Assembly (NCBI GenBank): GCA_964374105.1
Contig: CAYJXI010000008.1
Location: 2,589 to 66,588, forward strand
Direction of reading: 5' to 3'
Source of the DNA: an uncultured Planctomycetales bacterium
Lineage (GTDB): Bacteria > Omnitrophota > Gorgyraeia > Zapsychrales > JANLHA01
Length of the DNA: 64,000 nucleotides
The position numbers and the translations under genes are program-made. The notes beneath the pieces were generated by a model. It ran no database searches. It was not told where the DNA came from and was given only the letters and a program-made list of their open reading frames with translations. Shown here piece by piece: positions 26,313 to 63,493 of this stretch (the first letter of the stretch is position 1; every line of letters starts with the position of its first letter).

Positions 26313-28067
26313 ATGAAGTTAGCTTTAATTTACCCCCCATTTTTTCATAAGAAGTTTAATGAAAACCTCCCGACGGTTGATGATGAATTCGGCTTATTCC
26401 CTCACATCGGTTTTGGTTGGGTAGCGGCTGCTACTAAACAGGCCGGCCATGAGCTCAAGCTATTTGATGCCGCGGTGTCCAAATGCCGGTACGAAACCGT
26501 TTTGAAAGAGGTCCGGGATTACAGTCCCGATATATTAGGTTTTGCCGCTCATGCGATCCAGACGTATCGCGACATGCTGGTATGGGCCAAGAAATTCAAA
26601 AAGGATACCGGCCTGCCTATTTTGGTCGGCGGGTATGAGGCAAAAATTTATCCTTTAGAGATTATGGAACATTCATGCTTTGACTATTTGTGTGCCGGTG
26701 AAGCGGTGACGTTCATGGGGCCTTTCTTAGAAGCATTTAAGAGAGGATATGATTATGATAAAGTTCCGGACCTTTTTTATCGTAAGAATTGGCAAGTGAG
26801 AAGAACCCAAGATGCCCCGCATATTCCCTTCAGTCAGCATCCTCATCCTGATCGGTCCATTTTCCCTAATGAGCTTTATTACTCCCATGTGTCTTCTCGA
26901 AGGAATTTTACCATTGGCATGTCCGAAGTCGGCTGTCCCTACCCATGTACGTTTTGTTCGATGAGGCACACGGGCTTTGATGCCAGGACCCCAAAGCAGG
27001 TAGCCGATGAAATGCAGGAATGTGTTGAGCGTTACAACATCCATGAAATCGATTGGTTTGATCCCATCATGCTGTATGACCGAAATCGGATGATGAATTT
27101 AGCCGAGGAATTAAAGCGCCGCAAACTGGATATGATTTGGTCCACCAGAACGCGAGTCGATTGTCTTTCTTTCAGACGTCCTGATGGCAATGTTGATGAG
27201 GAGCTTATTCAAGCCCTTACCGAGTCTGGCTGTAAACGTCTTTTTTTCGGCATAGAGTCGGGAGATGACGAGGTTTTAAAAAATATCAGAAAGGCCAGCC
27301 GGACTGACAATATGCGCAAGGTATTGGAAGCCGTCGCAGCTCATGGCATTCGCCCTTTAGGTTTTTTTATGATCGGCAATCCCGGAGAAACCAAGGAGTC
27401 GGTTTATAAAACCATCACCTACGCTAAATCCCTGCCGTTGGATTATGCGCAATTTACCATTACCATCATGAAGCCCCACTCTGAATTGGAGAAAGATAAC
27501 TTTAAGGCTTTAGAAACAATCAACTATTGGCGTGAATACATTCGCGGAACCGTGGAAGAGCGCGTTCTGCCTACTCCCTGGACTAACCTCACTCGCGCTG
27601 AAATAGAGGTCTTGACGCGAATGGCGTATCTGCATTTCTACGCCAGACCCCGATACATTTTAAGAATGATCAGACGGTTACAATCCAGGGAAGAATTGAT
27701 GCGTTATGTGCGGGTATTTTTTCAGCTTTTATTGCGGCCGGTACGGCCTCAACAAGGGAAGAAAATACCTTTCATCGTTAAGGTCATAAGGTGCGTGTTG
27801 GCATTCTTGGAAGGGCTTATTGCTGTTATTAACAAGGGTGCCAGACATCCTGTTGCGGCCTATGGAGGAGGAGTGCGAGGGGCCTGGCAGTTGGCGAAAC
27901 GTGAATGGAAACGGTCAACAACCCTCGAAGATTTACCGGCTCCTGGTAATATGGACGAAGATCTTCTAATGATAGGTTCTGATAAACAATCTGACCAACG
28001 GGAGCAATTTGACCAACCCACCCGCTATATCCCTGTTTCCTCTGGTTCCCTAGGTTCTAGGCGCTAA
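26313..28067 (+). CDS. B12-binding (class B) radical SAM protein with a low-complexity C-terminal tail
   Basis: MKLALIYPPFF...GFGWVAAATKQAGHELKLFD B12-domain pattern and CPYPCTFC motif. Confidence 0.75.
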   Translation: MKLALIYPPFFHKKFNENLPTVDDEFGLFPHIGFGWVAAATKQAGHELKLFDAAVSKCRYETVLKEVRDYSPDILGFAAHAIQTYRDMLVWAKKFKKDTGLPILVGGYEAKIYPLEIMEHSCFDYLCAGEAVTFMGPFLEAFKRGYDYDKVPDLFYRKNWQVRRTQDAPHIPFSQHPHPDRSIFPNELYYSHVSSRRNFTIGMSEVGCPYPCTFCSMRHTGFDARTPKQVADEMQECVERYNIHEIDWFDPIMLYDRNRMMNLAEELKRRKLDMIWSTRTRVDCLSFRRPDGNVDEELIQALTESGCKRLFFGIESGDDEVLKNIRKASRTDNMRKVLEAVAAHGIRPLGFFMIGNPGETKESVYKTITYAKSLPLDYAQFTITIMKPHSELEKDNFKALETINYWREYIRGTVEERVLPTPWTNLTRAEIEVLTRMAYLHFYARPRYILRMIRRLQSREELMRYVRVFFQLLLRPVRPQQGKKIPFIVKVIRCVLAFLEGLIAVINKGARHPVAAYGGGVRGAWQLAKREWKRSTTLEDLPAPGNMDEDLLMIGSDKQSDQREQFDQPTRYIPVSSGSLGSRR

Positions 28068-28087
28068 CAAGGACCGTCATCTACAAA

Positions 28088-29080
28088 ATGAATTTAACGA
28101 GAAAAATAAAAATAGCCCAGAAAGTTCTCTCTGCTAAAATTTCTAAGAAATATTGTCCTCTGACAGTTAGTTGGGCTATTACAAGGCGTTGCCGCCAGAG
28201 GTGTTCCTATTGTGGGGTTGTGGTCCCCAAAGAAGAATTATCCACAGAAGAAATTTTTACGATCATTGACAAATTGAGTCGTTTTGGAACGGAAAGGATT
28301 TCGTTTACCGGTGGAGAGCCGTTATTAAGGGAAGATTTAGGGCGTATTATCGATTACGCTAAAGGTAAAGATATTGTTTCCGTTGTTAATACGAATGGAG
28401 ATTTGTTAAAGCAGGCAATACAAAAGTTATCGAATGTCGAGAGAATTACGATGAGTTTTGACGGACCGGATGAGGTCCACAGGGAATTGAGGCGCGGCAA
28501 TTCCCATCATCTTGAGGCGATAAAATTATGCCGGTCAGAAGGTATTCCGATCGTCTTAACCACTGTCTTATCCAAACTCAATCTTGATTATATAGATTAC
28601 ATTTTGGATATAGCAGAGAAGTTCAATATCAAGGTGTTATTTCAGCCAGCCCAGCTTAATTTGTTGGGTCAAGACAAGACAAATCCATTAGCTTTAGAAA
28701 AACAACAGTTGCAAGACCAGATTGAAAGATTAATCAAGAAGAAATCACAAGGGAATAGTCATATCTATAACTCACTATCCGGATTGAGACATCTAAAGCA
28801 TTGGCCTGAGGCCGCGATAATCCCCTGCTGGGCGGCTAAATTGCATTGTCGAATCGATAGCGATGGTTATATATACCCTTGCGGGCACACAACAGCCGCT
28901 TATAAAGAGCGATCAATCTTTTACAAGGATTTAAATGATTATAATGAACTTTATGATTTGGTACCTGTTGGTTGCCGTCACTGTTGGTGTGCATCGATCG
29001 TTGAATACAATTTAGCCCTTTCTTTCCATATGGATTCTCTTTGGAATATTGCTAATAATGAAAATCATTTTTTCAATTAA
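28088..29080 (+). CDS. Radical SAM protein with C-terminal SPASM/twitch-like Cys cluster
   Basis: CRQRCSYC CxxxCxxC, FTGGEPLLR, and C-terminal CWAAKLHC...PCGH...GCRHCWC. Confidence 0.7.
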   Translation: MNLTRKIKIAQKVLSAKISKKYCPLTVSWAITRRCRQRCSYCGVVVPKEELSTEEIFTIIDKLSRFGTERISFTGGEPLLREDLGRIIDYAKGKDIVSVVNTNGDLLKQAIQKLSNVERITMSFDGPDEVHRELRRGNSHHLEAIKLCRSEGIPIVLTTVLSKLNLDYIDYILDIAEKFNIKVLFQPAQLNLLGQDKTNPLALEKQQLQDQIERLIKKKSQGNSHIYNSLSGLRHLKHWPEAAIIPCWAAKLHCRIDSDGYIYPCGHTTAAYKERSIFYKDLNDYNELYDLVPVGCRHCWCASIVEYNLALSFHMDSLWNIANNENHFFN

Positions 29081-29130
29081 TGAATGAAATTTTTGGGTAT
29101 GTCAATTGCGGTTTTTAAGGGAAGGCGTTT

Positions 29131-30369
29131 TTAGAAATATCGCGTGATTTTATTTAATGTTTCAACGAGAAGTTTCGCCTCATCTTTTGTATTATAGAGA
29201 TATAAAGACACCCTCAAACTCGGAGGCAATTTATATTTTTTATACCAGGCATGACAACAGTGAACCCCGCTTCGTGTCATAATATTGTAAGTCTCATCGA
29301 GAATAATCGACAATTCTCCGGAATCCATGCCATCAATGGTTAAGTTTATTATACCAGCTCTTAATTTCGCATCTTGTGGCCCGAGCAGTTTAATTCTGGG
29401 AAGACCTTTGATTTCACTGCTAATGAACTCATTGAGTTCAGTTGAATGTTGCAGGATGTTTTGCATTCCAATGTTTTTTAAGTACTGGATGGCCGCCGTT
29501 ACCCCCAATGCCCCGGAATAATTCTGTAAACCAGCCTCGAATCGATCAGGTATTTTGGAAAGAATAAACGAACGATAGTCTACATCGTCAACAGTTTCCC
29601 CACCTATAAGAAAAGGAGTCATTTCTTCAAGGAGATGTTTTTTAGCATAGAGACACCCCATGCCGGAGGGTCCCAGCATTTTATGAAATGAAAAAACAAG
29701 GAAATCAACATCGAGTTTCTGAACATCTAGCGATTGATGCGCAATGCTTTGTGCAGCATCAAGGAGGACCAAAGCCCCGTGTTCATGGGAGCAGTTGATG
29801 ATTTCTTCAATAGGGAGAGTGTATCCCGTAACGTGGGATGTGTGAAAAACACTGACGAGCCTCACTCCCGAACTCAATGCTGTTTTAAATTTTTGCATGT
29901 CAAAAGTAAAATCCGGTGAAAGTGTAAATGTTTTGTACTGCACTCCTATTCTTCTGGTTAATATTTGCCATGGCAAATTGTTGGAATTGTGTTCCATATC
30001 GGTGGTGAGAATGCAATCGCCGTTCTTAAAGGGAAAACTATGAGCAACAATATTAATGGAATCTGTTGCGTTTTTTGTGAAAACGATCTCCTGGGCATCC
30101 TTGGCGTGGATAAATTGACGTACCATCTCTTTTGCCTTGAGGTAAGCATCGGTTGTCAGCTTGCCGAATTTATGTATGGCCCGTTTGTGGCAACTGGGAT
30201 GCGCCGTATAATATCTGTTCATTGCTTCGATGACCTGCTGCGGTCTTAAAGTCACACAGGCATTATCAAAATATATCGGTCTTTTCCCATTGATCGATTG
30301 ATATAAGGATGGGAAATCGTTTCTTATTTGTTCGATACTCACAGGCATTAGTTCGATACTAATAGGCAT
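29131..30369 (-). CDS. Class V aminotransferase, cysteine desulfurase (SufS/CsdA-like)
   Basis: FSFHKMLGPSGMGCLYAKK (PLP-Lys motif of NifS/SufS) and RSGVHCCHAW (catalytic Cys loop). The start is taken as the ATG at 30369 (MPISIELMPVSIEQIRNDFPSL, the usual family N-terminus) rather than the ORF-track start at 30525, which would overlap the neighbouring small ORF. Confidence 0.7.
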   Translation of the reverse strand: MPISIELMPVSIEQIRNDFPSLYQSINGKRPIYFDNACVTLRPQQVIEAMNRYYTAHPSCHKRAIHKFGKLTTDAYLKAKEMVRQFIHAKDAQEIVFTKNATDSINIVAHSFPFKNGDCILTTDMEHNSNNLPWQILTRRIGVQYKTFTLSPDFTFDMQKFKTALSSGVRLVSVFHTSHVTGYTLPIEEIINCSHEHGALVLLDAAQSIAHQSLDVQKLDVDFLVFSFHKMLGPSGMGCLYAKKHLLEEMTPFLIGGETVDDVDYRSFILSKIPDRFEAGLQNYSGALGVTAAIQYLKNIGMQNILQHSTELNEFISSEIKGLPRIKLLGPQDAKLRAGIINLTIDGMDSGELSIILDETYNIMTRSGVHCCHAWYKKYKLPPSLRVSLYLYNTKDEAKLLVETLNKITRYF

Positions 30370-30376
30370 GTGAAGT

Positions 30377-30742
30377 TTAAGATAGCAACAAACAGATTGG
30401 AAGTAGAAAGACTGCCCACAAAAAGAGTAAGAATAAGAAATTAAAATTTTTGTAAGCGACCCCGGAAATTCTTGCGAAATACGGCAACAGGTAGCCGGCG
30501 ACCTTGCACCGAATTTTAGGAACAATCGGCGTCATGTGGATCAGACGCAAATTGATCCGAACAATTAACTTAATGAGTTCACAGATTTTTTTTAGCGGCT
30601 TGATTATTTTGCTTAAGGGGATCAAGATAAAAAGAAACAGACTGCCTATGATGATCATAGGCATGGAGAGTGTTATCAGTCCAACCAAATTGGGTTCATT
30701 TTCTTTGAAATGGTAACCACAACAACCGGTCTCAAAAGACAT
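30377..30742 (-). CDS. Small (121 aa) two-TM membrane protein of unknown function, fitting exactly between the PP-loop and desulfurase genes
   Basis: The ORF fills the gap with 4-nt and 8-nt spacers to its neighbours. It has hydrophobic helices and an N-terminal CCGYHF. Confidence 0.4.
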   Translation of the reverse strand: MSFETGCCGYHFKENEPNLVGLITLSMPMIIIGSLFLFILIPLSKIIKPLKKICELIKLIVRINLRLIHMTPIVPKIRCKVAGYLLPYFARISGVAYKNFNFLFLLFLWAVFLLPICLLLS

Positions 30743-30746
30743 CTCT

Positions 30747-31595
30747 TTACCTTTCGATCAGTTTATAAAAACGGCTATGCTTTCTTTTTTGCACATAATC
30801 CTCTAAAGTATTTGTCAGATGAGATATTTTATCTTTGTAAAGTTTAACATTGGCCTTAACATATTCCTCATAAGAGTGATCGTATAAATAATACCACTTA
30901 ATAAATATATTAAACAGAATAAACTGAAAACAACGAGGCTGCATTCTACGGTCTAATTCAGTTCCTTTAACATTTTCAGACGGCATCAGGCCAAGTTCAT
31001 GCAATTGACAACCCGTCGTCCTCGCTTTTGTTTTCATGCTTGGTTTTTGAGGATCCTTTTCCTTTAAGATTGATTCTAAATGAAAACGATCAGCAAAGCC
31101 GATATTCTTGGGCGGGTCATAGTTGAAGACAGGGTTGTTATAGTTAATACCAAATTTGGCATACAATTTTTTTAGTTCATCAATGACGGTTGATATTTGT
31201 TCTGGGAATAAATACATGCCTTGGTTAGCCCCATCGGACACATTGCCGATATTATGATCCAAACAGAATATCAAAGTTCGGATATGCATGGCCAGTTTGC
31301 ATAATCCGCAAATAGAGAGTAAGAAAAAGCCGTGATGTCGCAAGTTATAAAGGTAACGTTCATAAAAAACATATTCGGTGAGTTTATCTATTATGACAAT
31401 GTGGGAGATAAACTTATCTTCACCGAATTTATCTTTCAATTTTTGGACGTTGAGTTGGCTGTTATTGACAGAAAATAATCCGAAACGCTTATATGTGAGA
31501 AGATGGACTTTGTCAAACTTTTTGGCTTCCAATGCCGCGGCTAAGGTTGAGTCCGTGCCTCCCGAAAACATCACAACTGTTTCATTATTGTTCAT
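30747..31595 (-). CDS. PP-loop ATP pyrophosphatase (adenine-nucleotide alpha-hydrolase superfamily), TtcA/TtuA/LarE-like candidate sulfurtransferase
   Basis: N-terminal VVMFSGGTDST PP-loop. A CGLCK motif about 80 residues downstream plus a further Cys, as in Fe-S dependent thiolases. Confidence 0.5.
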   Translation of the reverse strand: MNNNETVVMFSGGTDSTLAAALEAKKFDKVHLLTYKRFGLFSVNNSQLNVQKLKDKFGEDKFISHIVIIDKLTEYVFYERYLYNLRHHGFFLLSICGLCKLAMHIRTLIFCLDHNIGNVSDGANQGMYLFPEQISTVIDELKKLYAKFGINYNNPVFNYDPPKNIGFADRFHLESILKEKDPQKPSMKTKARTTGCQLHELGLMPSENVKGTELDRRMQPRCFQFILFNIFIKWYYLYDHSYEEYVKANVKLYKDKISHLTNTLEDYVQKRKHSRFYKLIER

Positions 31596-31599
31596 GATA

Positions 31600-31785
31600 T
31601 TAATTTTCTAGTTGTGTTTTTTGTGCCTTTTGAAGTTCATTAATAATGAATTTTAGAAGGACAATATAGCTCAAATAGAAAAATTGCGTGATCCAGCCTA
31701 ACAGCTCAATATAAAGACATCGCAAGCGCCAGGGCAATATAAGACCGAGGCTCAAGAGGAAGAAGGCCATTATTTTTTTAAACAT
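31600..31785 (-). CDS. Small hydrophobic ORF (61 aa), possible membrane peptide, translationally coupled to the PP-loop gene
   Basis: Stop lies 4 nt before the downstream start. Support is weak. Confidence 0.25.
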   Translation of the reverse strand: MFKKIMAFFLLSLGLILPWRLRCLYIELLGWITQFFYLSYIVLLKFIINELQKAQKTQLEN

Positions 31786-31851
31786 AATTTGTCACTTGTT
31801 GAAAATATGCTTTTGTTTAACAGTTTTTTGAACCGAAATGGTTAGGAGATT

Positions 31852-33333: not shown

Positions 33334-33349
33334 CGTTATTCATGCTCAA

Positions 33350-33574
33350 TTAAAATAAAGCATAAATGGCCGGCAGAATCGACTGACTGCCGCTTAAATT
33401 AACAAACAAACTCAAGAAAGCAAGTAGGATGAGTAAGGGAAGGAGCCACCATTTTTTGCTCTGCATAATAAGAATGAATAGATAAGTCAATACTTCCCAA
33501 TTGCTCTTGATCCGACTTTTTTTGGACTTAGTCGGATTTTTATTTTTTTGAGCATCCGCTTCATCCGCTTTCAT
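33350..33574 (-). CDS. DUF5989-like small membrane protein
   Basis: KKWWLLPLLILLAFLSLF...PAIYALF matches the remembered DUF5989 signature (KKWWL.P..., C-terminal ...IYTLF). Confidence 0.5.
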   Translation of the reverse strand: MKADEADAQKNKNPTKSKKSRIKSNWEVLTYLFILIMQSKKWWLLPLLILLAFLSLFVNLSGSQSILPAIYALF

Positions 33575-35235
33575 AGGTTAACGGCCCTTTCTTTAACTAG
33601 GACTTTATAAATGTCATCTGCCATAATACGATGGCCCTCTTTAGTGCAATGGTCGAAGTCTGAGAAGAATTTATCTTTTTCTTGCGGAGGGAATTTATTA
33701 AATACCGCATAATTATCAACAAAGGACACGCCATTTTTATTGGCAACATTCTCTAAAACTTTATTGGCTGAGTGATAGGCATAAGGGTAGTTCTGGATGA
33801 TTAAATTGATATTATTCATTCTGCACAACTGCACTATTCTTTCTAAATCATTTTCTAGCCAGGCATCAATTTCTTTTTCCATTTGTACTCTATTTTTAAA
33901 AAAGAAAACATAATTTCGAAACTCCTCGTTTTCTCTAAGGGTTGGATTTTCTTTTTCCAGCTTGGAAAAGAATGCCATAATATCATCGGCATCATACTGG
34001 CTTTGAAATTCATAGGCTTTGAGCAGGGCATAATAATTATCGAACTCGCCTGGATACAAACCGATAACATTTATGAACATCCCGACAGCTTCATCAAATT
34101 GACCTAATTGCATATAAATCCAGGCTAATTCGGTATAGGTATACGGTTTTGGATTCAATTCCAGTGACTTTTTGTACCATGTGGCTGCCTCCTTGTATCG
34201 GCCGAGTTTCTCATTGTAGCTGGCCATAGCATCATAAATAAGGTCTTGAGCCGTATTGAATTCGAGTGCCTTTTTGAATAATTTTTCCGCCTCTTCAAAT
34301 CTCTCCCGCATGATATAGGATTTGGCTAATCTTACATAAGCCCAGATACGATAAGGCTGATCGGTAATTAATTTGTGATATAAGTCTTCCGCATCATTGT
34401 ATCTTCCTTGTTTTTGGTAGTTTTCTCCTAAAGCCATATATGCATTTTCAGTTCCTATGTTATTGGTGATCATCTTGTTATACAATGATTCCGCCTCTTC
34501 ATATTTACCCTGTTCGTTATAACATTCTGCCAGTTGATAATATGTTTCAATCCTGTCGGGGTTTGAAATTATTTCTTTTTGATATTTTTCTTCTAAATTT
34601 TTATCACAAAAATCCACCTTCCCTGTGAAATCTCCCGTTTTATTGTAAGCATAATCATATTTTGCTTTAAGCCGTTCTTTGGCGCTCTTTTGGGCTTGTT
34701 TTTGGAGTATTCTTCCCTTTAAATTGACCATAAGAATGCTAGCAACTTTAAATAAGCGTAAATGAGAGAGGATATTCCCTCCCTTATTTTGATGATAACC
34801 GGCTGGGTTGAATCGGTTAGCCGATCCCACCAGAAGTATAACCGTATCTACACTGTAAGTCTTAATCAGTTTAGATAAATAGGAGAGGGCTTGTGTGGAA
34901 TTGGCCTCACAAATGCCACCGTTAATAACGGTGTATTCTTGTGGATAATTTTTTGAAAACAATTTCTGTAATTGACTGGGATAATTTTCCTCCCATTTCC
35001 CGCTTCCTCCCACCGTATAGGAGTCTCCTAAAGTTAAGATTGTGTTTGGGGTGTTATCGGTTAATTTATTTTGACCTTCGGAAAGCAATTGATGTAAATA
35101 AACATATCCCCCGAGCCTCAACCCGCCTTCTAACAATATGAGAAAAAAGAAGAGGCTAGCCAAACTGATACACAAGCGTGTTTTTAAATTGAGTTTATTC
35201 ATCTTCCAATTTGGATTTTGCCAATTGTATTCCAT
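33571..35235 (-). CDS. Membrane-anchored SGNH/GDSL-family hydrolase with an internal TPR-repeat insertion
   Basis: SGNH block I LGDSYTVGG, block II NGG, block III GSAN, block V DFDH. 5-6 TPR units (YYQLAECYNEQGKYEEAESLY...) lie between blocks III and V. Confidence 0.6.
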   Translation of the reverse strand: MEYNWQNPNWKMNKLNLKTRLCISLASLFFFLILLEGGLRLGGYVYLHQLLSEGQNKLTDNTPNTILTLGDSYTVGGSGKWEENYPSQLQKLFSKNYPQEYTVINGGICEANSTQALSYLSKLIKTYSVDTVILLVGSANRFNPAGYHQNKGGNILSHLRLFKVASILMVNLKGRILQKQAQKSAKERLKAKYDYAYNKTGDFTGKVDFCDKNLEEKYQKEIISNPDRIETYYQLAECYNEQGKYEEAESLYNKMITNNIGTENAYMALGENYQKQGRYNDAEDLYHKLITDQPYRIWAYVRLAKSYIMRERFEEAEKLFKKALEFNTAQDLIYDAMASYNEKLGRYKEAATWYKKSLELNPKPYTYTELAWIYMQLGQFDEAVGMFINVIGLYPGEFDNYYALLKAYEFQSQYDADDIMAFFSKLEKENPTLRENEEFRNYVFFFKNRVQMEKEIDAWLENDLERIVQLCRMNNINLIIQNYPYAYHSANKVLENVANKNGVSFVDNYAVFNKFPPQEKDKFFSDFDHCTKEGHRIMADDIYKVLVKERAVNL

Positions 35236-50213: not shown

Positions 50214-50230
50214 TGAACAGGCTTTCAAGG

Positions 50231-55242: not shown

Positions 55243-55253
55243 TAGCTATAAAT

Positions 55254-56016: not shown

Positions 56017-57462
56017 CTAATTTCTTGCTAATAGGTATTCATAGATTCGCTTAAAAATAAAATAAATCTGATAAGGCGATTTGATCTTACGTAATAGCTT
56101 AATAAGGATATGCCATCGCAAATAAAACCGCAGGTAGGCTCGTCTGACTATCGTTCGCTGGATATTTTTTTCTTTATTGTCTTGAAATCGATTGGTGATG
56201 TGAGCGGGAGAGGAAAGCCGTTCGTAATTGAGCTGATTTACGGCATCCTGACCATAGACGCGATTGATCACAGATCCCCCCGGGAGCGGCAGAAAATTGC
56301 TAAAATCAGCTACGTCTAACGGTAAGGAGCGAGCAAATTGTATTGTCTTATTCATATCGGCTTCTGTCTCACCGGGAAACCCCAGTATAAAAAACCCAGT
56401 GACATCAAAATCGAATTTTTTAATGATCTCCATTTTGGAAACGATCTCTTTAAGGCGCAATCCTTTTCTCATTCTATTTAAGGTTTCTTGGGAACCAGAT
56501 TCTATGGCGACAAATAATGAATAACATCCGGCTTGTCTCATTTTTTCTAGCAAAGGTTCATTCAGGCTGTCAATCCGAACACCATTGGGACAACTCCAGG
56601 CAATGTTTACCTTTTGATCTAAAAGCACATTACAAAACGATGTAACAAATTCATTATCTTCGGTGAAATCATCATCCAAAAAATGGAACTCTTCAATGTT
56701 ATATTCTTTTTTAAGATGAAGGATCTCCTGGATAATATGGGGGATGCTTCTTTTCCTGATTTTTCTCCCCGTCACGGTATGGGCAGCACAAAAGGAACAA
56801 TAATGAGGACATCCCCTCGTTGCAAAGAGAGGGGCAAACCGGCTTTTTTTATAAAAAACCCCTTGGCAGGTTTTAAAATATTTTTTAGGGTCAACCACAT
56901 CCCAGGCTGGGAATCCAAAAGAATCGAGATTATCTTCAAACGATTGGGGGTTGATGCGTACTTGGTGGTCGTCACGATAAATAAGCCCGGGGATATGTCT
57001 TAATCTGTCTGGACGATAGGTCCCATTCGTTTTAACCGATTCTAAAAGTTGAGGGAAGCCGATTTCCGCTTCCCCTTTGAAGGCAAAGTCCACGTTATCC
57101 AAAAATTGCATTGTATGTTCCGCAGCAGCGGAAGAGTGTGGTCCTCCTACCACGGTCAATATATCTTTTGAAACTCCTTTTTTTATTGCCTCGGTGACAC
57201 GTTTGACCATAGGCACATCATGCGATAACATGCTTAGTCCAATAACATTCGGTTTTTTTTCCTTAATGATTGTTATAAGCTCAGCCAAGGAAAAATTGTC
57301 GCAAACACAATCCAAGATTTGGGTTTTTTCACAATGATTTTTGATGGATGTAGCCAGGTAACCTAACCCAAGGGGAGGCATGATATGAAAGACAGCCTGT
57401 TGAGGTTGAGGGGGTTTAACTAACAGTACTTTCATTTCATTAAGGCAGATGTGTATAGACAA
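56017..57462 (-). CDS. B12-binding (class B) radical SAM protein
   Basis: TRGCPHYCSFCAAHTVTGRKIRKRS. Confidence 0.75.
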   Translation of the reverse strand: MSIHICLNEMKVLLVKPPQPQQAVFHIMPPLGLGYLATSIKNHCEKTQILDCVCDNFSLAELITIIKEKKPNVIGLSMLSHDVPMVKRVTEAIKKGVSKDILTVVGGPHSSAAAEHTMQFLDNVDFAFKGEAEIGFPQLLESVKTNGTYRPDRLRHIPGLIYRDDHQVRINPQSFEDNLDSFGFPAWDVVDPKKYFKTCQGVFYKKSRFAPLFATRGCPHYCSFCAAHTVTGRKIRKRSIPHIIQEILHLKKEYNIEEFHFLDDDFTEDNEFVTSFCNVLLDQKVNIAWSCPNGVRIDSLNEPLLEKMRQAGCYSLFVAIESGSQETLNRMRKGLRLKEIVSKMEIIKKFDFDVTGFFILGFPGETEADMNKTIQFARSLPLDVADFSNFLPLPGGSVINRVYGQDAVNQLNYERLSSPAHITNRFQDNKEKNIQRTIVRRAYLRFYLRWHILIKLLRKIKSPYQIYFIFKRIYEYLLARN

Positions 57463-57583
57463 AAAATTAGGACATTCGGATAAAAGTGTTTAACAACGCA
57501 ACCGACTCGTCTTAAAACTTAATATGAATATAACTTAAAACTAATTCTAATTCAAGGGAAAAAGCGGCGTTCAATTGATCAGA

Positions 57584-58954
57584 TTAATGTTGGATTGTCG
57601 ATAGAATCTCATTTGCGCGGCCGACTAACATCTTGTCGTTTGTTTTGGATAAGACCCAATAGCATCTATCAATAGCCCAATCATATTCGCCGGCCAGCCG
57701 GTAGATCTCAGCTTTGTTTAAATAGTAAACATACAACTCTTTTTTAGGAAGTGCAAATTGACTTTCCGGTAAATTGATAAAATAAATGGAATGGAGAAGA
57801 AAATAAATCATCAAACCCGTTATAACGAATTTAAAGAAACGGTGCTTTTGTAAAATATCGTTGAGCATATAAGAAAATAAGATAACACCCGGAAACAGGG
57901 TCATCCCTGCCCACCAATGATCATCCAGTAAGGAATAAGATCCCGCAATAAAGCTGGTTATCGTAAACACAAAGCCAAACATAAATAGAGAAAATTTTAT
58001 TAACTCAGTTTTATTTTTTTGTTTAAAACAATAAAAAAATCCCCAAAAAATTAATACCCCTAAAGGCCAATGAATCACAGGCAATTCATTGCTAAGCGCG
58101 CTTAAGAATATTAATTTGCCATCAGGTGCGATAAAAGAGATTGAATCGATATTTGAATCCCAAATAAACAAATGAAAATGTTCATTGAGAATAGGAAGCA
58201 ACTCAGCAAAATATAAATAAAATGATCTGAGGCTAACCCCCAAATCGAAGAAATGTTCACTGCTAATTTTGCTGAATTTATTCTCGTAACTCCAAAGCAA
58301 ATGGGGTGAGAAAATGAGGAACATGATCAAAAGCGAAAAATAAAATTCCTTACGTCTCAGCCAAAACCTGTGGTTTCTATTGACTATTAAATAAAAAAGG
58401 AGGGTTGAGGCAAATAAGACCATCCCCTCGTAAGCCAAACAACCAAACCCAATGAAAATAGCCGTAAACATCACATATTTTGCCTTCTGTGTATGCAGTC
58501 CTCGAAAAAAAGTATACAAAGCCAAAGGCATAAAAAAGAAAAATAAAGTCCCTTCATACGCAAAGCGTGTTACCCCGATATGATATTGGCTAAATGAGAG
58601 GAAATAAAGGGTCAAAAAAGCTGTTTTAGTTTTCAGATTTTCTTCTACGAGCTTGAATATAAAAAAAAGGCCCAAGGTCCCTAAGGCAACAAATAGCAGA
58701 CGAATTTCTAGCTGACCTGTACCGAAGAGAGCAACGCCTAGTTTAATGATATAAGTAGAGAGTATAGGGTTTTGTAAATCCTTATCCCCAATAGGGAGTT
58801 TCCAATGATCTCGAGCCAATGAGATATTTTTAATAAAATCGATGAGTTCTTGTTCATCAGGGATAAAAGGAACGAGACAGGATGTATAAAGCCGAAAAAG
58901 GCCGGCTATAATTAAGAGAAGGGATATTAGAAAAAACCGGGGCTTTCTTCTCAA
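57584..58954 (-). CDS. GT-C fold glycosyltransferase, ArnT/PMT_2-like
   Basis: FIPDEQELIDF...PILSTYIIKLGVALFGTGQLEIRLLFVALG matches the PMT_2 DE...KPPL...RL pattern. Multi-TM. Confidence 0.5.
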   Translation of the reverse strand: MRRKPRFFLISLLLIIAGLFRLYTSCLVPFIPDEQELIDFIKNISLARDHWKLPIGDKDLQNPILSTYIIKLGVALFGTGQLEIRLLFVALGTLGLFFIFKLVEENLKTKTAFLTLYFLSFSQYHIGVTRFAYEGTLFFFFMPLALYTFFRGLHTQKAKYVMFTAIFIGFGCLAYEGMVLFASTLLFYLIVNRNHRFWLRRKEFYFSLLIMFLIFSPHLLWSYENKFSKISSEHFFDLGVSLRSFYLYFAELLPILNEHFHLFIWDSNIDSISFIAPDGKLIFLSALSNELPVIHWPLGVLIFWGFFYCFKQKNKTELIKFSLFMFGFVFTITSFIAGSYSLLDDHWWAGMTLFPGVILFSYMLNDILQKHRFFKFVITGLMIYFLLHSIYFINLPESQFALPKKELYVYYLNKAEIYRLAGEYDWAIDRCYWVLSKTNDKMLVGRANEILSTIQH

Positions 58955-59367: not shown

Positions 59368-60831
59368 ATGAAAAGAAAGATTAGCTGTGTCCTGTTGCTT
59401 AGACTAAGTTCTGCTATCCTTAAGGAGGACAAACATCCCCGAGGTAGCCGCTTCCCGTATATGTTGAAGTATATGGAAGCGCTTCTTAAAAAGAATCCGG
59501 ACTGCAACGTTAAACTGATGGATTTAATGATTACACCGATGGAATCGAGGGCGTTGTTGAGTAGGGTACAGGATTGGACGCCGGATCTGATTGTCATTTA
59601 TTCAACCACCCGTGATCATTCGGCGGTTTTGGAGTTCTCTTCGTCTGTCAAGAAAGTTTGTCATCCAATTATTGTGAGCGTAGGGCAGGATCCTACCGCC
59701 AGACCCCTCCAATATCTCTTTGAAAACTCTCCAATTGATATTGTATTACCTGGTGACTCGGAATTAGAATTGTTAAAGGTCATTAAGGAGCTTAACAATG
59801 GAGCTGATCTTAAAAATTTTAAGCAATTTTACCTTAAACAAAAGACACTTATGATCTCTGAACTGGATGATCTTCCTTTCCCTGATGTCACTGGGGAGGA
59901 ATTGAAAGCTTATTATCACATCTACCCTATTGCTCTCAATCAGCGGTTGATCTGGGGACATATCCTAAGTTCTCGGGGATGTCCTTATCCCTGTATGTTT
60001 TGTACCGAGATGATCCGGGAGACCACCGGGGATAAGCCGCGATTCCGCAGCGCCGGTAATGTGGTCGATGAAATAGAATATTTGGCGGGAAAGGGCGTTA
60101 ATATTATTATTTTTGACGATGACAATTTCACGACTTCGAAAAGTCACGTTCAAAATATCTGTGCCGAGATGAGGAAAAGGGATTTAAGGATGCCTTGGGT
60201 GGCACATGCCAGGGTTGATAACCTTACCCATGATCTTTTGGAAGTCATGAAGGAAACGGGTTGCCTATTACTGCGGTTTGGCATTGAGTCAGGATCCCAT
60301 CGGATCATTAAACTATTGGAAAAGACAACGAGGGAGGATTGGGCACCGCAGACAAAAAAAGTATTTCGTTCCTGTCAAGAGTTAGGCATAGCAACAGCGG
60401 CCCTTTTTATGGTGGGATCGCCAACCGAAACAAAGGAGGAAATCGAAGAGAGTATCCGATTTGCCAAGGAACTCGATCCGGATGTCATTCAAGTATCATT
60501 TTTTACCTTTTATCCGGATACAAAAGCTTTCAAACGTCTGGAAAATTACGATAACGGTTATGATTTTGCCAAAATGTACCATTTTTCTACCTCGGATCCC
60601 GATTTCAATTTTAGCGAAGTGGATAACGATACCTTACAAAAACTACAAAATATTTTTTACAAAACGATATTGCTGAATCCGAGGTATATTATCAGACATC
60701 TTACAAAATACGGTCTTTTTTATTTATACAACCCTATGACTTTCCGTTCTCTGGCCCGGATCGGTAGCTATCTAGGGAGCAAAAAGGAGATTCGTTCGGG
60801 AGCTCAACTTTGCCATAGCGGTGCTCACTAA
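59368..60831 (+). CDS. B12-binding (class B) radical SAM protein (start uncertain)
   Basis: SRGCPYPCMFCTEMIRETTGDKPRFRSA. Confidence 0.7.
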   Translation: MKRKISCVLLLRLSSAILKEDKHPRGSRFPYMLKYMEALLKKNPDCNVKLMDLMITPMESRALLSRVQDWTPDLIVIYSTTRDHSAVLEFSSSVKKVCHPIIVSVGQDPTARPLQYLFENSPIDIVLPGDSELELLKVIKELNNGADLKNFKQFYLKQKTLMISELDDLPFPDVTGEELKAYYHIYPIALNQRLIWGHILSSRGCPYPCMFCTEMIRETTGDKPRFRSAGNVVDEIEYLAGKGVNIIIFDDDNFTTSKSHVQNICAEMRKRDLRMPWVAHARVDNLTHDLLEVMKETGCLLLRFGIESGSHRIIKLLEKTTREDWAPQTKKVFRSCQELGIATAALFMVGSPTETKEEIEESIRFAKELDPDVIQVSFFTFYPDTKAFKRLENYDNGYDFAKMYHFSTSDPDFNFSEVDNDTLQKLQNIFYKTILLNPRYIIRHLTKYGLFYLYNPMTFRSLARIGSYLGSKKEIRSGAQLCHSGAH

Positions 60832-60844
60832 TATAAGGAATAAC

Positions 60845-62107
60845 ATGTTTGCCAAGAAAGCCTACCCGCGTCATACAATCAACGGAAGTATAAAGTTGTT
60901 TGGACTGGCGTGTCAGATGATCTTTAAGGGGAGGGCTCAGGCAGGAGATCATATCCAGCGTTTTGAACAGAAATTTGCTGAGTTTATCGGCACTCAATAC
61001 GCCATCGGAGTGGAATCAGCAAGAAAAGGGCTTTATTTAATACTCAAAAGCCAGCGTTTTGATAGAGGCGATGAAGTGATCATGCCGGACTATACCTTCA
61101 AGGCGTTACCGGTTGCGGTTATTGCCTGTGGTCTAAAACCCGTGTTTGTAGATGTCGATCGGTATACATATAATATCAACCCTACCTTGATTGAAGAGAA
61201 AATCACCAAGCGCACAAAGGCGCTCATTATTACGCATATGTTTGGTCAGCCCGTTGATATGGCTGCTATCTTGGCGTTAGCGCGGAAACATCAACTCTGC
61301 GTTATTGAAGATTGTGCTCATGCGTGCGGTGGAAAATATCAAAATCAGCGGCTGGGTTCTTTAGCGGATGCGGCGGTTTTCAGCTTTAAAATGGGAAAAA
61401 ATCTTCCTTGTTTTGGCGGAGGGATGATCACCACAAACGATACGCGCCTCTATACAAACCTTAAAGAAATGATTGCAAAATTTCCCTATCCCCAAAAGTG
61501 GGATTTGATAAAAGATGTTGCGAGTACTTTTATATTTTACTTAAGCACGCATAAAAATATCTTCCCTTTGGTCACTTATCCGATCCTTCGTCTTTTAGAT
61601 TGGGTGGGGTCCGACTTCAGTGATAGTCACATCGAGGAATCCGTAGATATAGAGAAGAGCATTAACTCTCTCCAAAACCAAACCCGGTTGGCCAATCTTC
61701 AGGCGGCGGTGGGCCTTGAGCAATTGTTGCGATTGGATGACCTCAATTGTAAGCTAAAAGTGAACGCCCAACAGCTTATTAAGGAATTGCGCAATGTTAA
61801 GAATATTTCTGTCCTGGTTGAAAATGCAGAAAACCTCCCGACCTATTTATATTTTCGAATTCAGGTCCCTCAGGTGAGGCCTTTTCGCAAAAAGTTGCTC
61901 TCTAAAGGGGTGGATACCAAACGGGATGATATGAGTGCGTGTTCCAATCTCAAGGTTTTTTCAGAATACCGACAGTCATGTCCTGTCGCAGAAAGACTGA
62001 ATGTGAGGAGTATCGAAATCCCCAACAACCCCTTTCTCAACGAAGATGACATTGGATACATCGCGCAGCAGGTTATGCATACTGCCGATGAAATTTATGG
62101 ACCGTGA
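60845..62107 (+). CDS. DegT/DnrJ/EryC1-family PLP-dependent aminotransferase (Lys intact)
   Basis: AVFSFKMGKNLPCFGGGMITT and EDCAHACGG. ATG at 60845 with a TAAGGAA RBS; the ORF-track GTG at 60821 overlaps the upstream stop. Confidence 0.7.
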   Translation: MFAKKAYPRHTINGSIKLFGLACQMIFKGRAQAGDHIQRFEQKFAEFIGTQYAIGVESARKGLYLILKSQRFDRGDEVIMPDYTFKALPVAVIACGLKPVFVDVDRYTYNINPTLIEEKITKRTKALIITHMFGQPVDMAAILALARKHQLCVIEDCAHACGGKYQNQRLGSLADAAVFSFKMGKNLPCFGGGMITTNDTRLYTNLKEMIAKFPYPQKWDLIKDVASTFIFYLSTHKNIFPLVTYPILRLLDWVGSDFSDSHIEESVDIEKSINSLQNQTRLANLQAAVGLEQLLRLDDLNCKLKVNAQQLIKELRNVKNISVLVENAENLPTYLYFRIQVPQVRPFRKKLLSKGVDTKRDDMSACSNLKVFSEYRQSCPVAERLNVRSIEIPNNPFLNEDDIGYIAQQVMHTADEIYGP

Positions 62108-62194
62108 AGATATGTCAGGGGTCGGGGAGTTTTTTCCCTCCCTTGGTAGCACTGCAGGCAGGCTCTCCCATCGAGGGGAAGGAAAAGATAGATT

Positions 62195-63493
62195 ATGAAA
62201 ATACTATTATGCAAACCCTATTGGCCTTACCCCTATGGCAGAGGCGAACATACGTACAACCGTATTTGGCCGCCGTTATGCTTGGCTAATTGTGCCGCTC
62301 TATTGGAAAGACAGAACCATGTTGTCAAAATTTTAGACGCGCATGCTTTGCGTATTAAACCGCAGAAAATCAAATTCTTTATTCAGAATTTTGATAAGAT
62401 TTTTATTACTTCATCGTCTCTGGATCGATGGCAATGTCCCAATATTGACATTGCCATGTTTCTTCAGACTGTTAGATATATCAGAGAAGTGACCAACGAA
62501 ATCTATATTATGGGTTACCACGGAACCATCGATCCCGCAAATATTCTTGTCCAAACAAAAGCCAAAGCGGTTATCAGAGGGGAAGCGGAATACACGATTG
62601 AAGAGATCTGTCAAAATCAAAATTTAAGCGATATCAAAGGTATTACCTATCAAACTAACGGTAAAATCATTTCCACCTCGGATAGAGAAAATGCTGATTT
62701 AAAAAAACTTCCTGTCCCTGCCTTTCATTTATTAGATACGAGCAAATATGCTTATGAAATACTGGGAAAAAATTTTACCTTGTTTGAAATCAGCCGGGGA
62801 TGTAAATGGGGGTGTAAATTTTGCAATAAACTTATGTATGAGCCAAACTTAAGAGTTAAATCCGCCAACCAGGTTATAGAGGAAATTAAGGTTGCCATCG
62901 AAGATAATGGCATCAAAACAGGTTATTTTATTGATTTGGAATTCCTCTCAAACAAAAAAACAGTTTCCGAAATCTGTGATTTTCTTACAACGAGCCAATA
63001 TGATTTTCGATGGTGTTGCCAAACGCGCGCCGATTCTCTAGATGAGGAAATTGTTAGGAAGATGAAAAAAGCCGGCTGTGAACTCATTCATGTGGGAGTT
63101 GAAAGCGGGATTCAGAAATTTCTTGATTTATCCGGCAAACACACCACAGAAGATAAACTAAAAAAGGGAGTACAGATGTGTGAAAAAGCAGGTATCAAAA
63201 CGCTTGCCTTTTTTATGTTTGGATTTCGCGGAGAAACAGCTAAAGACAGGGAAGAAATATTTCAATTTGCCCGGAAATTAAATACCAATTTTGTTTCATT
63301 TCATAAAGTGTATCCTTATAGGAAGAGCGATATTTATTTATCCGATATCCATTCCAATAAAGAAATAGACAATCATATTCTTAAAGTATATCTGAAATAT
63401 TATTTAAGGATCGCCTATTTGAAGAAATCCGATATCATGACGTTGATCCGAAGTTTTAAATTATTCTTAGGGCGGCTAGGCACTTTGACATGA
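62195..63493 (+). CDS. B12-binding (class B) radical SAM protein
   Basis: SRGCKWGCKFC, and MKILLCKPYWPY B12-domain-type N-terminus. Confidence 0.7.
   Translation: MKILLCKPYWPYPYGRGEHTYNRIWPPLCLANCAALLERQNHVVKILDAHALRIKPQKIKFFIQNFDKIFITSSSLDRWQCPNIDIAMFLQTVRYIREVTNEIYIMGYHGTIDPANILVQTKAKAVIRGEAEYTIEEICQNQNLSDIKGITYQTNGKIISTSDRENADLKKLPVPAFHLLDTSKYAYEILGKNFTLFEISRGCKWGCKFCNKLMYEPNLRVKSANQVIEEIKVAIEDNGIKTGYFIDLEFLSNKKTVSEICDFLTTSQYDFRWCCQTRADSLDEEIVRKMKKAGCELIHVGVESGIQKFLDLSGKHTTEDKLKKGVQMCEKAGIKTLAFFMFGFRGETAKDREEIFQFARKLNTNFVSFHKVYPYRKSDIYLSDIHSNKEIDNHILKVYLKYYLRIAYLKKSDIMTLIRSFKLFLGRLGTLT

Follow-up and report, generated by a model that had tools for sequence, protein, structure and literature searches.

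Introduction

In the textbook scheme represented by ArnC, ArnD and ArnT, a family 2 glycosyltransferase (GT2) charges polyprenyl phosphate with a sugar, the lipid-linked sugar, which soluble enzymes may trim, is flipped across the membrane, and a glycosyltransferase of the GT-C fold transfers it outside. Radical S-adenosylmethionine (SAM) enzymes with a B12-binding domain (class B) that modify sugars are known from natural-product pathways and include GenK, GenD1, Fom3 and MoeK5; AprD4 has the class B architecture and is not known to use cobalamin. Here we describe a stretch of 64,000 nucleotides (contig CAYJXI010000008.1 of assembly GCA_964374105.1; hereafter, the window) in which eleven class B radical SAM genes lie among GT2 and GT-C genes. 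Genes are named by their lower coordinate in the window, and the loci of other genomes used for comparison are denoted by L numbers.

Two described systems combine some of these activities on lipid-linked sugars. The YdjC-family enzyme NaxD deacetylates undecaprenyl-phosphate-linked N-acetylgalactosamine before its transfer to lipid A in Francisella and Acinetobacter (PMC11279074). In hopanoid biosynthesis, HpnI glycosylates, HpnK deacetylates, and the radical SAM enzyme HpnJ contracts the ring of bacteriohopanetetrol-linked glucosamine, while Cds likewise contracts the ring of a hexose linked to glycerol dialkyl glycerol tetraether lipids (PMC13459092). HpnI and HpnJ have been reported only in genomes that also possess squalene-hopene cyclase (SHC) and HpnH (PMC12324291).

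With slightly better than even confidence, we interpret the window as a plastic cell-envelope glycan locus of an Omnitrophota-like bacterium of the Planctomycetes-Verrucomicrobia-Chlamydiae (PVC) group, composed of repeated cassettes that tailor sugars on a carrier lipid. Searches of the literature on radical SAM proteins of Omnitrophota or Omnitrophica, on B12 radical SAM enzymes in connection with polyprenyl carriers or GT-C enzymes, and on cobalamin radical SAM enzymes in connection with lipopolysaccharide (LPS) returned no description of such cassettes, and the conserved GT2–radical SAM–GT-C cassette itself appears uncharacterised.

Class B radical SAM genes of the window

All 49 open reading frames (ORFs) of at least 150 amino acids (aa) in the window were scanned with Pfam profiles. 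Matches to both PF02310 (B12-binding) and PF04055 (radical SAM) were found in eleven of them, with starts at 837, 26313, 31852, 41823, 48777, 50231, 51619, 53034, 56017, 59368 and 62195, which bears out the eleven genes that a preliminary description of this DNA had listed as B12-binding radical SAM genes. Nine proteins pass the PF02310 cut-off of 32.1 bits. The other two, 59368 (26.8 bits, E 5e-6) and 62195 (27.8 bits, E 2e-6), score slightly below it and align from near the N-terminus (residues 63 and 23, respectively) to the class B models HpnJ and BchE. Each of the eleven proteins possesses a single CxxxCxxC motif at residues 195-227, and none contains a DxHxxG motif, which is usual for class B enzymes. 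No transmembrane (TM) helices are predicted in ten proteins, and a single C-terminal helix is predicted in 26313. Cobalamin binding by the eleven proteins is a prediction and should not be assumed from sequence. Rfam and tRNA scans of the window detected no cobalamin riboswitch, no other RNA family and no tRNA, despite the presence of eleven putative B12-dependent genes.

The class B genes cover 39% of bases 26313-63493. Together with the 10 kb upstream of the window, where no class B radical SAM gene was found, 74 kb were inspected, and 10 of the 11 genes are located within the last 37 kb (binomial p = 0.006). Up to seven class B genes lie wholly within a stretch of 21 kb here, whereas none of the 78 comparator loci, taken from other genomes, exceeds four. 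This density had been called unprecedented, a claim that fails within the lineage and against fused proteins: a close relative (L005) carries seven class B genes in 14 kb, and certain fused proteins carry four or five radical SAM modules in about 7 kb.

Pairwise identity among the eleven proteins is 17-32%, except for the more similar tandem trio 48777/50231/51619 (Table 1), which suggests that they are mostly old, diverse paralogues. The trio members share 80-92% identity over the radical SAM core but 40-67% over the N- and C-terminal parts, and their DNA sequences have no remaining similarity, as would fit genes that duplicated long ago and then diverged outside the catalytic core. An additional ORF of 151 aa (52341-52796, minus strand) lies in another frame inside 51619 and has a weak match in L005 (82 aa at 41% identity); it is most likely a by-product of the conserved overlapping gene rather than a real gene.

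NCBIfam scans of the radical SAM proteins, GT2s, YdjC protein and membrane proteins gave nothing above any equivalog cut-off, and the labels HpnJ, HpnK, ArnC and MiaB, all of which match below their cut-offs, were not applied. The best named models are HpnJ for most of the class B proteins, BchE, and a P-methyltransferase family for 56017. The highest HpnJ (TIGR03471) score, 245 bits for 41823, compares with a cut-off of 577.6 bits, and the other class B proteins score 117-187 bits. By sequence profile, the nearest solved radical SAM structures are AprD4, entry 9ccb, OxsB, TokK, TsrM and CysS. AprD4 (6fd2) is the closest of these, with a match that spans the radical SAM core only.

Three further radical SAM genes had been assigned to the SPASM type (28088 and 39948) and to the methylthiotransferase type (46519). 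The assignment stands for 39948, in which PF13186 was detected. Protein 28088 has six C-terminal cysteines (residues 247, 254, 265, 296, 299 and 301) with no Pfam SPASM match, and a SPASM or twitch domain is plausible there. In 46519, the UPF0004 domain, the three N-terminal methylthiotransferase cysteines (18, 54 and 83) and the radical SAM core (C184xxxCxxC) are present, but no TRAM domain was found in the domain scan, and the MiaB/RimO subfamily score (188 bits) remains under the cut-off of 251 bits.

GT2, radical SAM and GT-C cassettes

Between 58954 and 39948, 15 minus-strand genes follow each other in the same direction with gaps of -37 to 157 nucleotides (nt). The first half of this run consists of a PMT_2 gene, radical SAM 56017, GT2 55254, YdjC, radical SAM 53034, the radical SAM trio and GT2 47743. 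It is followed by the methylthiotransferase-like radical SAM gene, a DUF2079 gene, the PMT_2-like gene 43417, radical SAM 41823, GT2 41077 and the SPASM radical SAM gene. The run contains two complete units of a loader GT2, a class B radical SAM protein and a GT-C protein, namely 55254/56017/57584 (cassette 1) and 41077/41823/43417 plus 44961 (cassette 2). A promoter and terminator scan of the 39.6-59.5 kb region was uninformative, giving the same counts as shuffled sequence.

Both loader candidates are small GT2s. The closest solved structures to 55254 are dolichyl-phosphate mannose synthase (DPMS) of P. furiosus (5mlz), ArnC (9hwj, 9bhc and 8vxh) and GtrB (5ekp), and this protein also matches the ArnC and PpgS models under their equivalog cut-offs. 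Similarity of this kind, together with the pairing with GT-C enzymes, leads us to infer that polyprenyl phosphate is the acceptor of 55254 and 41077. On the transferase side, 43417 is probably a PMT_2-like GT-C protein, as judged from its sequence, and 44961 belongs to DUF2079, which we take to be a member of the GT-C clan. Domain and fold searches confirmed that GT-C proteins, GtrB-like GT2s (41077 and 55254), other GT2s and three DegT genes are interspersed with the radical SAM genes, as originally noted.

The YdjC protein of cassette 1 (54373) aligns over its full length with the HpnK model (TIGR03473, 182 bits against a cut-off of 232.6 bits) and is thus a family member, not an HpnK equivalog; its matches in the PDB are 2i5i and the chitooligosaccharide deacetylase 7vi8. 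The start of radical SAM 53034 overlaps the stop of the YdjC gene by 8 nt, and the L005 orthologue of 53034 is 85% identical. No radical SAM gene was found in the surroundings of a distant YdjC homologue (42% identity), so the link between YdjC and radical SAM genes is lineage-restricted, with L040 as its only other instance.

Recurrence of the cassette across phyla

The 78 comparator loci, which come from other GTDB genomes, were recovered with the tandem trio as query and are dominated by the 56017 and 41823 subfamilies. A class B radical SAM gene is accompanied by a PMT_2 or YfhO gene, mostly together with a DPMS-type GT2 (hereafter, GT2a), in Omnitrophota, Acidobacteriota, Elusimicrobia, Aegiribacteria, Desantisbacteria and Bacteroidota. 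Genes for 56017-type proteins (300-386 bits) occur in the order GT2a, radical SAM, small ORF, PMT_2 in five Omnitrophota loci (L028, L030, L044, L057 and L073); GT2a directly precedes the radical SAM gene in Fibrobacteria (L047) and shares a short contig with it in Syntrophales (L069). In Desantisbacteria and Marinifilum (L041, L049, L052 and L056), a YfhO-type protein comes after the 41823-type protein (330-390 bits). Two other loci have further sugar-tailoring enzymes between loader and transferase: the order is GT2, 41823-type radical SAM, carbamoyltransferase, PMT_2 in Acidobacteriota (L061), and radical SAM, class I methyltransferase, PMT_2, GT2 in Elusimicrobia (L065). In different phyla, the radical SAM gene lies between loader and transferase together with a gene for a deacetylase, carbamoyltransferase or methyltransferase, an arrangement that fits the tailoring of a carrier-linked sugar.

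The small ORF between the 56017-type radical SAM gene and PMT_2 in the Omnitrophota cassettes encodes 115-137 aa with one N-terminal TM helix, and no Pfam match was found in the two copies scanned (L028 and L073). In the window, the 121-nt gap between 56017 and 57584 is too short for such an ORF.

A Pfam scan of ten polytopic proteins adjacent to the radical SAM genes yielded PMT_2 six times (five of them above the cut-off) and YfhO twice, as well as one protein with TM helices and TPR, one Wzx-like flippase and one without a match. When class B genes were compared with the other genes of the same loci, with no correction for phylogeny, a polytopic neighbour on the same strand within 3 kb was found for 54 of 107 versus 66 of 288 (odds ratio 3.4, p = 3e-7), and a GT2a neighbour for 14 of 107 versus 15 of 288 (odds ratio 2.7, p = 0.015).

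The 56017-type family is large, comprising 8,234 cluster representatives at 50% identity (E<=1e-30). Fused proteins are present among the best relatives of 56017 (P0173, P0224, P0286, P0291 and P0293). One of them, a metagenomic protein of 2,633 aa (P0291, L095:194-8095) encoded by a single uninterrupted ORF under genetic code 11, joins two class B radical SAM modules, DUF362, Fer4, three GT4 modules and TPR, and is a Rosetta-stone link between radical SAM proteins and glycosyl transfer. Some other fused proteins, 2.1-2.3 thousand aa long, combine four class B modules, with or without an additional SPASM radical SAM module. The association of radical SAM, GT2 and GT-C genes is therefore not a coincidence of this window, being seen in synteny among related species, in cassettes across phyla, in the neighbour enrichment and in the fusion.

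Conservation in related genomes

The only close genome in GTDB (L005) was deposited as a metagenome-assembled genome (MAG) of an uncultured 'Planctomycetales' bacterium and is 82% identical to the trio. Its inverted locus contains radical SAM 62195, DegT, radical SAM 59368, PMT_2, radical SAM 56017, GT2 and YdjC, and then radical SAM 53034, three more tandem radical SAM genes and GT2 47743, with 51-85% identity to the window. The core block PMT_2–radical SAM–GT2–YdjC–radical SAM(n)–GT2 is thus present in L005 and also in L092 (Hainich groundwater), and L091 has it without PMT_2. The number of class B genes after YdjC is four in L005, two in L091 and four in L092, and at least four in L088, where the run is cut by the locus end. 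The outer genes of L091 are arranged in a different order. An IS3-family transposase gene (rve, HTH_Tnp_1) is located inside the radical SAM array of L091 (L091:6629-7701), in keeping with a hot spot of rearrangement at this locus.

Outside the core block, L088 has an adjoining SPASM–DUF2079–methylthiotransferase–GT2–radical SAM run; the cassette 41077–41823–43417 and the block of PP-loop, radical SAM 31852 and GDSL genes are both absent from this locus. A radical SAM plus SPASM gene occupies the position corresponding to 39948 in L088, L091 and L092, matched by domain and position and not by alignment. The module 24547–26313 recurs in L094, in the order PMT, GT-C 24547, PMT_2, radical SAM 26313, flippase-like protein, methyltransferase, radical SAM, YfhO, radical SAM, beside unrelated housekeeping genes. 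Radical SAM 26313 and its L094 counterpart (L094:13211-14968) are 91% identical, compared with 60% for the adjacent GT-C 24547 and 31% for the flippase-like protein; either a very strong constraint or a recent transfer would explain this value.

In L090:1-6773, the domain order of window positions 29131-36511 is retained (GDSL–GDSL–class B radical SAM–282-aa ORF–Aminotran_5). The 282-aa ORF has no Pfam match and corresponds to the PP-loop protein 30747 by its length and position. Recurrence of this order and the TRAM-less protein 46519 hint at sulfur insertion chemistry. The L090 homologue of 38052 is 48% identical.

Across the related loci, protein identity ranges from 48 to 91% and the radical SAM copy number varies. 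The locus is conserved in content and plastic in the number and order of its cassettes, which is typical of surface-glycan loci. Exact matching placed the window on a 72-kb contig of a MAG, with GCA_947085705.1 as a second assembly, and its proteins form clusters of only one or two members each. Two observations suggest the affiliation with Omnitrophota. The block GT9…GT2–HAD–MGDG–PriA–Fmt…GAPDH (MGDG, monogalactosyldiacylglycerol synthase-like) is collinear, at 28-56% identity, with MAGs deposited as Omnitrophota, Omnitrophica and 'Planctomycetia', and the sole named homologue of 38052 comes from 'Candidatus Omnitrophica'.

Proposed mechanism and alternative explanations

By analogy with ArnC/ArnD/ArnT and FlmF2/NaxD/FlmK, the cassettes most likely perform radical tailoring of a lipid-carrier-linked sugar followed by GT-C transfer to the envelope. 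A small GT2 of the DPMS/ArnC/GtrB kind would move one sugar from its nucleotide-sugar donor to polyprenyl phosphate at the cytoplasmic face. Soluble cytoplasmic enzymes would then remodel the lipid-linked sugar: the YdjC deacetylase of cassette 1 would free an amine, and one to five class B proteins per cassette would carry out radical chemistry on unactivated carbons. This chemistry might be C-methylation, contraction of the ring to yield a carbocycle, or deoxygenation or dehydration. C-methylation had been named, along with skeletal rearrangement, as the typical chemistry and is one candidate only; AprD4, OxsB and HpnJ carry out dehydration or ring contraction on sugars. Since the radical SAM proteins are soluble and need SAM and a reductant, they would act before flipping. 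The tailored lipid-linked sugar would subsequently be flipped across the membrane, and a GT-C-fold transferase (PMT_2, DUF2079, YfhO-like or orphan) would attach it to a periplasmic acceptor. This acceptor would most probably be LPS core or lipid A, as suggested by the neighbouring GT9, heptose-pathway and DegT genes, or else another envelope glycan or protein.

The region is a mosaic of at least four cassettes, not one pathway, and its content differs between close relatives. The earlier proposal of a heavily modified glycan assembled on the periplasmic side is therefore retained in one part: periplasmic transfer of radically tailored sugars is the best reading, but a patchwork of this kind argues against a single architecture with one heavily modified product. 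With several cassettes lying next to each other, duplication in tandem and the gain or loss of cassettes would diversify surface chemistry between related species. More tentatively, and with somewhat less than even confidence, we propose that the 56017 and 41823 subfamilies are widespread, unrecognised tailoring enzymes for polyprenyl-phosphate-linked sugars (C-methylated, deoxygenated or carbocyclic) that GT-C enzymes install on the cell envelope in many phyla of anaerobes, most of them uncultivated, and that the battery has been amplified in this lineage to diversify the surface.

Several points weigh against the tailoring of carrier-linked sugars. The substrates of the radical SAM proteins, GT2s and YdjC are assigned by analogy only, because none of these proteins reaches an NCBIfam equivalog cut-off. 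Some radical SAM proteins could act on nucleotide sugars rather than on lipid-linked sugars, for example 837, which is coupled to a heptose-nucleotide pathway. The sub-blocks at 20-29 kb, 29-37 kb and 59-63 kb have no DPMS-type GT2, and some radical SAM genes thus lie outside complete cassettes. No small flippase of the ArnE/F, GtrA or GtcA type was found in the window, the intergenic gaps are too short for one, and the sole flippase-like gene, 21955, is distant from cassettes 1 and 2. The Foldseek matches that relate the orphan membrane proteins to the GT-C fold have modest E-values (0.009-0.15) and TM-scores (0.3-0.42). Finally, the neighbour enrichment was measured against genes of the same loci, with no correction for phylogeny.

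The alternative that survives best is a lineage-wide proliferation, in which many functionally unrelated class B radical SAM genes are spread over the genome and the window is a chance dense patch beside envelope genes. Such a genome-wide habit, already allowed for in the preliminary description, is partly true, as Omnitrophota relatives carry class B radical SAM genes among housekeeping genes, inside the same GT9…PriA–Fmt–GAPDH block (L028, L030, L044, L057, L042 and L050). In addition, housekeeping genes interrupt the window, at least two class B genes occur within 21 kb in 31 of 79 loci from other genomes, and the low identity among most of the eleven genes marks them as old and diverse. 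As a full explanation we nevertheless consider it unlikely. The genes of the window are concentrated in half of the inspected sequence, the gene order near them is conserved in the related species examined, and even the 'scattered' copies of relatives lie within GT2–radical SAM–PMT_2 cassettes; moreover, proliferation leaves the neighbour enrichment and the fusion of radical SAM and glycosyltransferase modules unexplained.

Somewhat more doubtful still is a role in the modification of the cell's own membrane lipids, such as cyclitol ethers made by HpnI/K/J, calditol-like head groups, or methylated or cross-linked chains. Lipid-modifying class B radical SAM enzymes are well documented (PMC13459092), and the window offers several resemblances to them: HpnJ is the best NCBIfam model for most of the radical SAM proteins, the YdjC protein reaches about four fifths of the HpnK cut-off, HpnL and a 'lipid biosynthesis B12/rSAM' model match weakly, and an MGDG-synthase-like gene is present. 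Every Hpn model, however, scores far under its cut-off, with HpnJ at no more than 245 of 578 bits, and no HpnI-type GT2, SHC, HpnH or HpnG was seen within the 64-kb window, whereas HpnI and HpnJ are reported solely together with SHC and HpnH (PMC12324291). The GT2s resemble polyprenyl-phosphate loaders, and the GT-C enzymes with which they form pairs take polyprenyl-phosphate-sugar donors. Maturation of a peptide or of an envelope protein that the GT-C enzymes glycosylate is very improbable: although class B and SPASM radical SAM proteins are common maturases of peptides that are made on ribosomes and modified after translation (RiPPs), ApyD and RiPP C-methyltransferase models match weakly, and PMT-family GT-C enzymes can glycosylate proteins, a RiPP role was rejected because precursor genes would have next to no space in intergenic gaps that reach 413 nt at most; Pfam scans of the window also revealed no peptidase, transporter or RiPP recognition element, and the neighbours are sugar-nucleotide and glycosyl-transfer enzymes.

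If sugars are indeed tailored by radical chemistry on the carrier lipid, C–H chemistry of this kind would join deformylation and deacetylation on the short list of known reactions of undecaprenyl-phosphate sugars. Omnitrophota, Elusimicrobia, Acidobacteriota and other groups would be predicted to have new acid- or glycosidase-resistant sugars in their envelopes, and the pile-up of such genes in variable surface-glycan loci would be explained. Thousands of B12-domain radical SAM proteins of anaerobes have no assigned function, and the cassette offers a testable substrate hypothesis, a lipid-carrier-linked monosaccharide, for two large subfamilies. The GT2, radical SAM and GT-C genes form a minimal three-gene set for heterologous reconstitution.

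Other genes of the window

The first radical SAM gene of the window is 837, the stop of which overlaps the start of a heptose-kinase-like GHMP gene by 4 nt. This gene opens a sugar-nucleotide and LPS-core-like block in the order HddA-like GHMP kinase, NTP transferase, DegT, GT4, GT2, ManC-like NTP transferase, GT9 heptosyltransferase, DegT, GT2, GmhB-like HAD and MGDG-synthase-like GT28. The HddA-like kinase scores 140 bits with the NCBIfam HddA model, under the cut-off. The housekeeping genes at 13722-19903 separate radical SAM 837 from the remaining ten class B genes. Among them, two tandem GalT-like (HIT-family) genes (16745-18765) lie between Fmt and GAPDH, in the slot that is taken by a 56017-type radical SAM gene in L042 and L050.

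From 20109 on, the window encodes seven polytopic membrane proteins of 456-636 aa, among which pairwise BLAST revealed no relatedness. A plus-strand unit consists of the YfhO-like gene 20109, the flippase-like gene, a membrane protein gene, GT-C 24547, radical SAM 26313 and radical SAM 28088. Protein 20109 is probably a YfhO-like GT-C protein, given that its homologues in L041 and L052 match PF09586 (YfhO) and adjoin 41823-type radical SAM genes. The orphan proteins 24547 and 38052, neither of which has a Pfam match (nor, for 24547, an NCBIfam match), are assigned to the GT-C fold from their AlphaFold2 (AF2) models, whose top Foldseek matches in the PDB are exclusively GT-C. These are ArnT (5f15 and 5ezm), PIG-U, STT3 and ALG9 for 24547 (probability up to 1.0, E 0.009-0.6), and STT3, AftB, AglB, Pmt4, PglB and ArnT for 38052 (probability ~1.0, E 0.02-0.15). 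Only 7 homologues of 38052 were found among 5.8 billion proteins, and it is thus lineage-specific. The 3' end of its gene overlaps the convergent SPASM radical SAM gene 39948 by 15 nt. A PF13646 HEAT-repeat gene, which precedes 38052 in the window, also adjoins its homologues in L088 and L089. At the opposite end, a divergent unit (59368-63493) consists of a radical SAM gene, the third DegT gene of the window and another radical SAM gene, and runs on into a GT9 gene.

Table 1. Features of the 64-kb window, and the small ORF of related Omnitrophota cassettes
Feature	Position	Strand	Evidence
Class B radical SAM, 503 aa	837..2348	+	PF02310 50.6 bits, PF04055 69.9 bits; motif CPFRCSFC
Sugar-nucleotide/LPS-core-like block	2345..13700	+	Pfam; synteny with Omnitrophota MAGs L028, L030, L044, L057
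Housekeeping interruption: PriA, Fmt, two GalT-like genes, GAPDH	13722..19903	+	Pfam; not members of the system
Polytopic membrane protein, ~8 TM	20109..21914	+	weak GT-C_AftD (E 0.0036); weak YfhO
Flippase-like membrane protein (LPG_synthase_TM)	21955..22899	+	PF03706 121 bits; TIGR00374 51 bits vs cut-off 43.2; weak HpnL
Polytopic membrane protein, ~7 TM	22887..24536	+	marginal PMT_2/O-antigen-ligase matches only, E 0.6-1.9
Orphan membrane protein, predicted GT-C fold, 13 TM	24547..26199	+	AF2 pLDDT 86, pTM 0.87
Class B radical SAM, 584 aa, C-terminal extension	26313..28067	+	PF02310 57.1 bits, PF04055 71.9 bits
Radical SAM, 330 aa, Cys-rich C-terminus	28088..29080	+	PF04055 86.9 bits; L088 orthologue 83% identical
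SufS-like cysteine desulfurase	29131..30525	-	PF00266 375 bits; TIGR01979 SufS 430 bits vs cut-off 475
PP-loop ATPase-like protein, N-terminal QueC-like motif only	30747..31595	-	weak QueC, DUF7411, residues 6-41
Class B radical SAM, 493 aa	31852..33333	-	PF02310 42.4 bits, PF04055 70.5 bits
Two membrane-anchored GDSL/SGNH hydrolase + TPR proteins	33571..36511	-	Lipase_GDSL_2 + TPR; one N-terminal TM each
HEAT-repeat protein, N-terminal TM	36519..37709	-	PF13646 123 bits
Orphan membrane protein, predicted GT-C fold, 14 TM	38052..39962	+	AF2 pLDDT 72
Radical SAM + SPASM	39948..41009	-	PF04055 93.6 bits; PF13186 31.8 bits vs cut-off 21.5
Small polyprenyl-phosphate-type GT2, cassette 2	41077..41832	-	PF00535 87.8 bits; NCBIfam AglJ 143 bits, Dol-P-hexose transferase, PpgS
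Class B radical SAM, 41823-type, cassette 2	41823..43259	-	PF04055 94.8 bits, PF02310 34.5 bits; HpnJ 245 bits
Polytopic membrane protein, 9 TM, cassette 2	43417..44955	-	PMT_2 18.6 bits, E 0.0023, under cut-off
DUF2079 membrane protein	44961..46481	-	PF09852 87.2 bits; DUF2079 gene in matching position in L088, L091
Methylthiotransferase-like radical SAM	46519..47730	-	UPF0004 40.9 bits, radical SAM 74.2 bits
GT2 with C-terminal TM helices (3 TM)	47743..48780	-	PF00535 47.5 bits; L005 orthologue 56% identical
Tandem paralogous class B radical SAM trio	48777-50267, 50231-51613, 51619-53028	-	57-74% mutual identity
Class B radical SAM	53034..54380	-	PF02310 73 bits, PF04055 89 bits; HpnJ 187 bits, under cut-off
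YdjC-family carbohydrate deacetylase, NaxD/HpnK-like	54373..55242	-	PF04794 220.9 bits
Small soluble polyprenyl-phosphate-type GT2, cassette 1	55254..55982	-	PF00535 92.4 bits; NCBIfam best ArnC
Class B radical SAM, 56017-type, cassette 1	56017..57462	-	PF02310 63.3 bits, PF04055 83.2 bits
PMT_2 (ArnT/PMT-like) GT-C, cassette 1	57584..58954	-	PF13231 88.2 bits; L005 orthologue 68% identical
Class B radical SAM, divergent from cassette 1	59368..60831	+	PF04055 62.3 bits; HpnJ model over residues 63-446; L005 orthologue 70%
DegT/PseC/ArnB-like sugar aminotransferase	60821..62107	+	PF01041 267.9 bits; NCBIfam PseC, LegC, ArnB under cut-off
Class B radical SAM	62195..63493	+	PF04055 87.6 bits; HpnJ/BchE models from residue ~20
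GT9 heptosyltransferase-like, cut by window end	63528..64000	+	full gene 422 aa, PF01075, on contig L084
Small ORF of related cassettes	L028:11271-11678, L030:11355-11765, L044:11230-11631, L057:11342-11689, L073:2390-2803		

Comparison with known systems

AprD4 and OxsB belong to the same enzyme class as the eleven proteins, act on sugars or aminoglycosides, and are the nearest solved structures. In natural-product pathways, the antibiotic clusters of cultured producers carry radical SAM enzymes of this class one at a time or at most three together, whereas the window has up to seven in 16 kb in an envelope-glycan context, and identity to the natural-product enzymes is at the superfamily level only.

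The GtrA–GtrB–GtrX system of O-antigen glucosylation and the CsbB–GtcA–YfhO system, which adds N-acetylglucosamine to lipoteichoic acid, share with the cassettes a three-part logic of synthase, flippase and GT-C transferase, including a transferase of the YfhO type (20109 and its homologues). These systems have a GtrA-family flippase and transfer a sugar without modification, whereas radical SAM tailoring is proposed for the cassettes and no GtrA was found in the window.

The HpnI–HpnK–HpnJ pathway, grouped here with Cds, resembles cassette 1 in its trio of a GT2, a YdjC deacetylase and a B12-domain radical SAM protein, which in that pathway act serially on a lipid-linked hexosamine. The YdjC and radical SAM genes are adjacent in both cases (overlapping here), and HpnJ and HpnK give the highest scores among the named models. 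The differences are that the scores remain far under the cut-offs, the GT2 of the window is not HpnI-like and the window has no hopanoid genes. The presence of GT-C proteins here implies, moreover, that the sugar is passed on and not kept as a lipid head group.

A further likeness is to ArnC–ArnD–ArnT, to FlmF2–NaxD–FlmK of Francisella and to LgmA–C of Bordetella, in all of which the GT2 loads undecaprenyl phosphate; 55254 is closest to ArnC and DPMS. The Arn and Flm pathways share with the scheme proposed for cassette 1 the cytoplasmic deacylation of a lipid-linked amino sugar, NaxD being a YdjC protein like 54373. A DegT/ArnB-type aminotransferase gene is found nearby, and transfer at the periplasmic face is carried out by a GT-C enzyme of the ArnT/PMT_2 type. 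Unlike the Arn system, the window has no ArnE/F-type flippase, ArnA-like dehydrogenase or formyltransferase, and its proteins score below the Arn equivalog cut-offs; in addition, one to five class B radical SAM proteins come between the loader and the transferase.

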